Assembly (NCBI GenBank): GCA_004322365.1
Contig: SCTS01000007.1
Span: 18,266-82,265, forward strand
DNA: 64,000 bases
Reading direction: 5' to 3'
Source of the DNA: Patescibacteria group bacterium
GTDB taxonomy: Bacteria > Patescibacteriota > Minisyncoccia > Phycocordibacterales > Phycocordibacteraceae
In this document: positions 39,532 through 40,082 of the stretch, in pieces
Position numbering within the stretch: the stretch's first letter is position 1
How the letters are laid out: each line of letters starts with the position of its first letter
Notes under the pieces: model-generated
Databases searched by the model: none
The model's input: the letters and a program-made list of their open reading frames with translations, nothing else
Told to the model about the DNA's origin: nothing
Program-made: the position numbers and the translations under genes

Positions 39532-39662
39532 CGCATTGTGCCCTGAAAAGTTCGAACCGAAAAGCTAAATACCGCTTCACATCAACTCACACATACTTTT
39601 CTGCTGAAAAGTTGCGCGAGCCCGCCTCGACGCCTTCGCGCCTCCGGCTGATCGACGTTGCA

Positions 39663-40082
39663 CTACTTCACGTCGATCCCCATGGAGCGAGCCGTACCGG
39701 CAATGATTTTCATTGCTTGCTCAGTATCTTTTGTATTCAAGTCAGGCATCTTCTTCTCAGCAATCTCTTTGAGTTGCGCCTTTGTGATTGAACCTGCTTT
39801 TACTGTTGGAACCTTTCCAGAACCCTTCTCCAAACCTGCCCATTTCAAAAGGAGACGTGATGCTGGAGACACCTTAACAATAAAGGTGAACGAACGATCG
39901 TCCATGACCGAAATCTCAACAGGAAGGATGTCGCCCATTCTGTCTTGGGTTGCGGCATTGAACTGCTGAACAAACTGGCCAATGTTTACACCGGCTGGAC
40001 CGAGAGCTGTTCCCACTGGAGGCGCAGGAGTTGCCTTACCGCCTGGAACCTGAAGCTTAATTTTCTTTACTACTTTTGCCAT
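39663..40082 (-). CDS. rplK: 50S ribosomal protein L11
   Basis: …[26 protein letters not shown]…. Confidence 0.95.

Follow-up and report, generated by a model that had tools for sequence, protein, structure and literature searches.

A Parcubacteria-type secE-nusG-rplK locus without rplA in a genome region that keeps an intact 23S rRNA L1 stalk

In the window, the 64-kb stretch of DNA analysed here, the secE-nusG-rplK unit ends at rplK and the gene for ribosomal protein L1 (rplA) does not follow. The reading preferred here, with a probability of roughly 0.87, is that the window comes from a member of the L1-less Parcubacteria subgroup (OD1-L1; GTDB class Paceibacteria), the ancestor of which would have lost rplA. 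The OD1-L1 group was named for the lack of rpL1 in all of its members (Brown et al. 2015, cited through PMC5220378). A subset of Parcubacteria without rpL1 is also described in PMC7304191, the loss of rpL1 has been confirmed in complete CPR genomes (PMC9297842 and a preprint), and the absence of L1 from a Parcubacteria subgroup is recorded again in PMC12641178.

A missing rplA after rplK is a published signature of OD1-L1/Paceibacteria, and the locus is therefore real but ordinary for its lineage; the L1-less layout is already published. No departure of the window from the published description was found. The window and the published group both lack rplA after rplK, and both keep H78 and the L1 stalk. 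The locus serves as a taxonomic and quality marker which places the window in the L1-less Paceibacteria, and it holds no new biology. The missing rplA should not count as genome incompleteness for this bin. What is added is one further concrete, coordinate-level case in which the rRNA L1 stalk is intact and the surrounding genome region has no rplA.

The secE-nusG-rplK unit and the junction after rplK

The canonical cluster of E. coli and most bacteria has the order secE-nusG-rplKAJL-rpoBC. The window shares with it the order and orientation of secE-nusG-rplK and the adjacency of rplJ and rplL, with a possible L10 leader, but differs in the absence of rplA, in the position of rplJL 34 kb away and in the absence of rpoB after rplL. 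The three genes follow one another head to tail (40837 to 39663, minus strand) and form a compact unit that terminates at rplK. The unit is headed by secE (40646-40837(-); PF00584, E 3.2e-16), with a promoter-like site and a terminator-like hairpin just 5' of it, followed by nusG (40098-40640(-); PF02357, E 2.8e-27, plus KOW). It is closed by rplK, which encodes ribosomal protein L11/uL11 (39663-40082(-); PF03946 and PF00298) and passes the NCBIfam equivalog TIGR01632 with 179 bits against a cut-off of 141.85. An L1-binding leader regulates the L11 operon of E. coli. The distance from the nusG stop to the rplK start in the window is only 15 nt, which leaves no room for a leader of the E. coli type.

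On the 3' side of rplK, a spacer of 134 nt (39529-39662(-)) occupies the usual start position of rplA and is followed by a CofE-like gene in place of rplA. The spacer is structured, folding far better than shuffled sequence (RNA fold z = -3.83). No remnant of rplA was found in the post-rplK spacer of the window, where the L1 profile gave no match, or in that of its close relatives. An earlier sequence-only reading of this DNA had described a secE-nusG-rplK arrangement that stops at rplK with the CofE-like gene next; Pfam and NCBIfam calls and the coordinates bear this out, and its gene identities and gene order are all correct.

The source is a metagenome-assembled draft genome and the post-rplK spacer varies in length and content between strains, features that would suit an artefact of assembly or binning, for instance chimeric joining of contigs or collapse of the sequence where rplK ends. 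Misassembly is nevertheless ruled out, because independent contigs with identical L11 from JGI, ENA and Logan, assembled from different samples, show the same junction of rplK to the CofE-like gene (6/6 of the contigs shown). The arrangement of rplK without rplA also recurs in 50 other species-level genomes, and the probability of an artefact is close to nil. Among the contigs with identical L11, some insert a small ORF between rplK and the CofE-like gene.

The spot after rplK differs in length and content among strains with identical or near-identical L11. There is no ORF in the window at 39529-39662. Among the loci of relatives (numbered with the prefix L), L001 (10421-10671) and L004 carry an ORF of 65 aa after rplK, and L002 (10421-10694), L003, L005 and L007 carry another one, Cys-rich and about 70 aa long. 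Two more small ORFs stand beside the Cys-rich one after rplK in L007 (10421-11150). The spot looks like a hot spot for the gain and loss of small genes.

The search for L1

The L1 profile was built from E. coli L1 and 19 L1 genes located downstream of rplK in the fetched loci. It was run with hmmsearch --max against all stop-to-stop segments of at least 40 aa in the six frames of the 64-kb window. This profile recovers the 19 true L1 genes at E < 1e-95; no L1 was found in the six frames of the window, the best E being 7.6, which is noise level. Pfam scans covering about 50 ORFs of the window likewise gave no match to PF00687 (Ribosomal_L1). Loss of both rplA and der, with retention of H78, has been reported for Paceibacteria in a 2025 paper (PMC12641178). 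None of the window ORFs scanned with Pfam is Der-like, a result that covers 64 kb and carries no weight for the genome.

The nusG-rplK spacer has a median of 32 nt in L1-negative loci versus 102 nt in L1-positive loci (Mann-Whitney p = 0.014, a test that ignores phylogeny). The spacers of L1-positive CPR relatives resemble AT-rich palindromes. Loss of an L1-binding mRNA leader was considered as independent evidence of rplA loss and was dropped, as nothing in these L1-positive CPR spacers recognisably mimics the 23S L1 site.

Relatives of the locus and the L11+NusG tree

Relatives were collected by scanning the GTDB species representatives with the L11 of the window, giving 80 loci, each with a flank of at most 10 kb to either side of rplK. 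A rough neighbour-joining tree of L11+NusG (about 320 residues) was made for 79 loci, comprising the window, one contig with identical L11 and 77 GTDB loci. An L1-negative call needs at least 1.5 kb of downstream flank, and 8/79 loci were too short to call. L1 is absent from 52 of the 79 loci with a flank of at least 1.5 kb, namely the window, the contig with identical L11 and 50 GTDB loci. From the 80 loci found, all 50 species-representative loci without L1 that have enough flank show rplK without rplA. A further 19 loci have L1 at 0-4 kb downstream of rplK. Four of these come from bacteria outside the CPR, with the labels Firmicutes, Planctomycetota, Fuerstiella and Phycisphaerae; another seven bear a Falkow-, Uhr-, Magasanik- or Moranbacteria label, and on the remaining eight the label is uninformative (‘Patescibacteria group bacterium’, ‘uncultured Gammaproteobacteria’).

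In the tree, the window falls within a large clade made up of L1-negative loci only, which takes in loci labelled Vogel-, Zambryski- and Taylorbacteria. All L1-positive loci lie outside this clade, including those with Falkow-, Uhr-, Magasanik- or Moranbacteria labels and the four non-CPR loci. Five L1-negative loci (L057, L067, L074, L081 and L083) branch beside L1-positive ones. Locus L009, with a Kaiserbacteria label and 87% L11 identity, is also without L1; it was left out of the tree as its nusG is cut. Relatives with more than 90% identity go under the names Parcubacteria bacterium Greene0714_7 and Candidatus Paceibacterota. The position in the tree, together with the published OD1-L1 group, supports the earlier proposal that the locus structure is consistent with L1-less Parcubacteria. 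That proposal had called the absence of L1 a hallmark of Parcubacteria, which holds for the subgroup and fails for the whole, as loci labelled Falkow-, Uhr-, Magasanik- and Moranbacteria keep rplK-rplA.

These relatives also bear on whether rplA is present in the genome but relocated outside the 64-kb window. The rRNA L1 stalk of the window is fully canonical, as described below, and the rplK/rplA pair is able to split, rplA already lying 0.8-4 kb from rplK in the L1-bearing loci L060, L065, L066 and L078. Relocation is nonetheless very unlikely: the flanks of the 52 L1-negative loci, up to 10 kb either side of rplK, are all free of L1, and published surveys, complete genomes included, find no L1 in the subgroup (PMC5220378, PMC7304191, PMC9297842 and PMC12641178). 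Clade placement and these whole-genome surveys together suggest that the remainder of the genome probably lacks rplA as well, in keeping with a true loss of the gene.

The recurrent gene order of the L1-less clade is SIMPL (DUF541)-secE-nusG-rplK. In the window, the SIMPL/DUF541 gene, the product of which has an N-terminal membrane anchor, is located upstream of secE at 41505-42329(-). Among L001-L084, a SIMPL gene is found in this position in most L1-negative loci and in 0/19 L1-positive loci. It is a synteny marker of the L1-less clade, probably indicating shared ancestry only. A convergent folA is located 30-80 nt past rplK in L014, L015, L023, L025, L028 and L029. The CofE-like gene stands between rplK and folA only in the subclade of the window and a few other loci (L001-L012, L021, L026 and L059).

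The L1-bearing Parcubacteria of the ABY1 type (Falkow-, Uhr-, Magasanik- and Moranbacteria) have the same secE-nusG-rplK order, and their rplJL is likewise not within 10 kb of rplK. Unlike the window, they contain rplA at 0-4 kb downstream of rplK and have no SIMPL gene 5' of secE. According to the literature, including PMC12641178, they tend to lose H78 instead.

Several loci (L007, L010, L014, L027, L048, L067 and others) encode an L11 that is 65-95% identical to that of the window and have odd record labels, such as ‘uncultured Candidatus Saccharibacteria’, ‘Gammaproteobacteria’, ‘Nitrospira sp.’ and ‘Nanoarchaeota’. Their secE-nusG-rplK contexts are Parcubacteria-like, and the labels are probably wrong or the contigs mis-binned.

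The 23S rRNA and its L1 stalk

The 23S rRNA gene is truncated by the edge of the window (1-2751(-); RF02541, 2129 bits; model positions 1-2609). The L1 stalk, H76-H78, is complete at 388-491(-), corresponding to positions 2119-2222 in the numbering of the Rfam model, which is used for all stalk positions. The stalk has 104 nt against 104 model positions with zero indels. Its base pairs are canonical in 33/34 cases, and 18 pairs deviate from the consensus at both sides yet still pair. The stalk matches the consensus at 29 of 34 highly conserved positions, and in four of the other five the change is a paired one. The matching elements include GGGAG, UUGAA and UGAAAUACC. A complete H76-H78 agrees with the retention of H78 published for Paceibacteria (PMC12641178); the retention of this helix in L1-less members is already on record. 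As published for that group, the ribosome would carry the H76-H78 stalk of the rRNA without the L1 protein.

A stalk with conserved canonical nucleotides would also be expected were L1 present, and this counts against the loss of rplA. The L1 stalk contacts the E-site tRNA, and this contact can account for the conservation of the stalk without L1.

The stalk keeps all its helices as well as the 29/34 highly conserved positions, which would also fit the replacement of L1 by a protein that is unrecognisable, whether through extreme divergence or for lack of homology, and binds the stalk that is kept. A published remark holds that such bacteria ‘may have alternative mechanisms’ (PMC5220378). A replacement is very unlikely, however, since no candidate for it was found: the post-rplK ORFs are small and differ between strains, and no conserved unknown gene fills the rplA slot across the clade, while the tRNA contact can explain the conservation by itself. 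There is a similarly small chance that the L1-binding platform is kept because something else uses it, either an unrecognised uL1 substitute or a protein-free stalk that handles the release of E-site tRNA. Ancestral loss of rplA with retention of the stalk is the reading followed here.

No 23S rRNA gene is present in any of the fetched loci of relatives, which extend up to 10 kb on each side of rplK. In the window, the 23S gene is unlinked to the 16S gene, as there is no SSU match in the 64 kb. A gene for an msc-like membrane protein is located directly 5' of the 23S gene. The 5' 1.8 kb of the 23S gene exceeds the Rfam model by about 134 nt and may contain an insertion.

The rplJ-rplL locus

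The genes rplJ (L10; 5742-6251(-); PF00466, E 2.1e-17) and rplL (L7/L12; 5248-5610(-); PF00542 and PF16320) are located 34 kb from rplK on the same strand, behind a gene for a TPR protein (6774-7559(-); several TPR Pfam families). This distance and the upstream TPR gene had been noted in the sequence-only reading and are confirmed by Pfam and by the coordinates. The 522-nt gap directly 5' of rplJ contains a weak match to RF00557 (6359-6479(-); 20.6 bits, E 0.46, against a gathering score of 44), which spans the whole model on the correct strand. This candidate may be a divergent L10 leader, which would suit a self-contained rplJ-rplL unit. The pair probably forms a separate unit with its own leader. 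On the 3' side of rplL, in the usual position of rpoB, there is an ORF for a protein of 206 aa (4438-5058(-)) with no Pfam or NCBIfam match, followed by the msc-like gene and the 23S rRNA gene; rpoB is not located there.

Among the CPR loci fetched, L1-bearing or L1-less, none has rplJ or rplL within 10 kb of rplK; such proximity is confined to the four non-CPR loci. That rplJ-rplL and rplK stand apart is general in the sampled CPR loci, and would either predate the loss of L1 or be independent of it, because the L1-bearing CPR relatives have rplJL apart too. Where the separation had been presented as part of the L1-less layout, the separation itself stands and its tie to the loss of L1 does not.

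The CofE-like gene and its folate/thymidylate surroundings

The gene that follows rplK encodes a putative CofE-like gamma-glutamate ligase (38791-39528(-); PF01996, F420_ligase, E 1.3e-30). Its protein fails the F420 CofE equivalog TIGR01916, with 92.9 bits against a cut-off of 180.65. The top NCBIfam match is TIGR04132 (‘putative folate metabolism gamma-glutamate ligase’) with 189 bits, under the cut-off of 350. A second CofE-like paralog (53943-54650(+)) also has TIGR04132 as its best match and is likewise below this cut-off, with 211 bits. The genes folA, dcd, thyA, tmk and glyA adjoin the first CofE-like gene (neighbours at 33749-38216). The second comes after genes for a Vut_1 vitamin transporter and a RibD_C/DHFR-like protein (neighbours at 52675-53842), so that both paralogs adjoin DHFR-type genes. 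Judged by match scores and gene neighbourhood, the post-rplK CofE-like gene is a predicted member of a folate/thymidylate cluster, unrelated to the ribosomal unit, because TIGR04132 outscores the CofE equivalog and the neighbours are folA, dcd, thyA, tmk and glyA.

In L013, folA runs in the same direction as the CofE-like gene, at a distance of 3 nt. A hairpin of 11 bp (AAUGCGGUGAUGGACGUCACCGCAUU) at 39512-39537(-) encloses the ATG of the CofE-like gene in the window. The flank CACAAUGCGGUG(A)AUG at the CofE-like start is kept in L001-L005 and L008. The hairpin and the conserved flank suggest possible translational control of the CofE-like gene.

Other features of the window

No Shine-Dalgarno motif of the GGAGG type stands out by eye when the 30 nt preceding each of 23 gene starts are inspected, those of ribosomal protein genes included (for example 40083-40112 and 6252-6281). 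This is consistent with L1-less Parcubacteria, as an indirect indication.

The window contains LAGLIDADG-like and HNH ORFs, which are stand-alone homing-endonuclease-like genes (49120-49779(-) and 58953-59432(+)). The LAGLIDADG-like ORF adjoins tRNA-Leu and tRNA-His, and the HNH ORF adjoins tRNA-Ser. A GIY-YIG gene lies between thyA and dcd in L001 (13276-13545) and L004 and is absent in the window. The rpsF-ssb-rpsR cluster (18599-19910(-)) is not followed by rplI, and its S6 is extended to 189 aa. The L19 protein (49865-50446(-)) is also long, with 193 aa from the listed GTG start.
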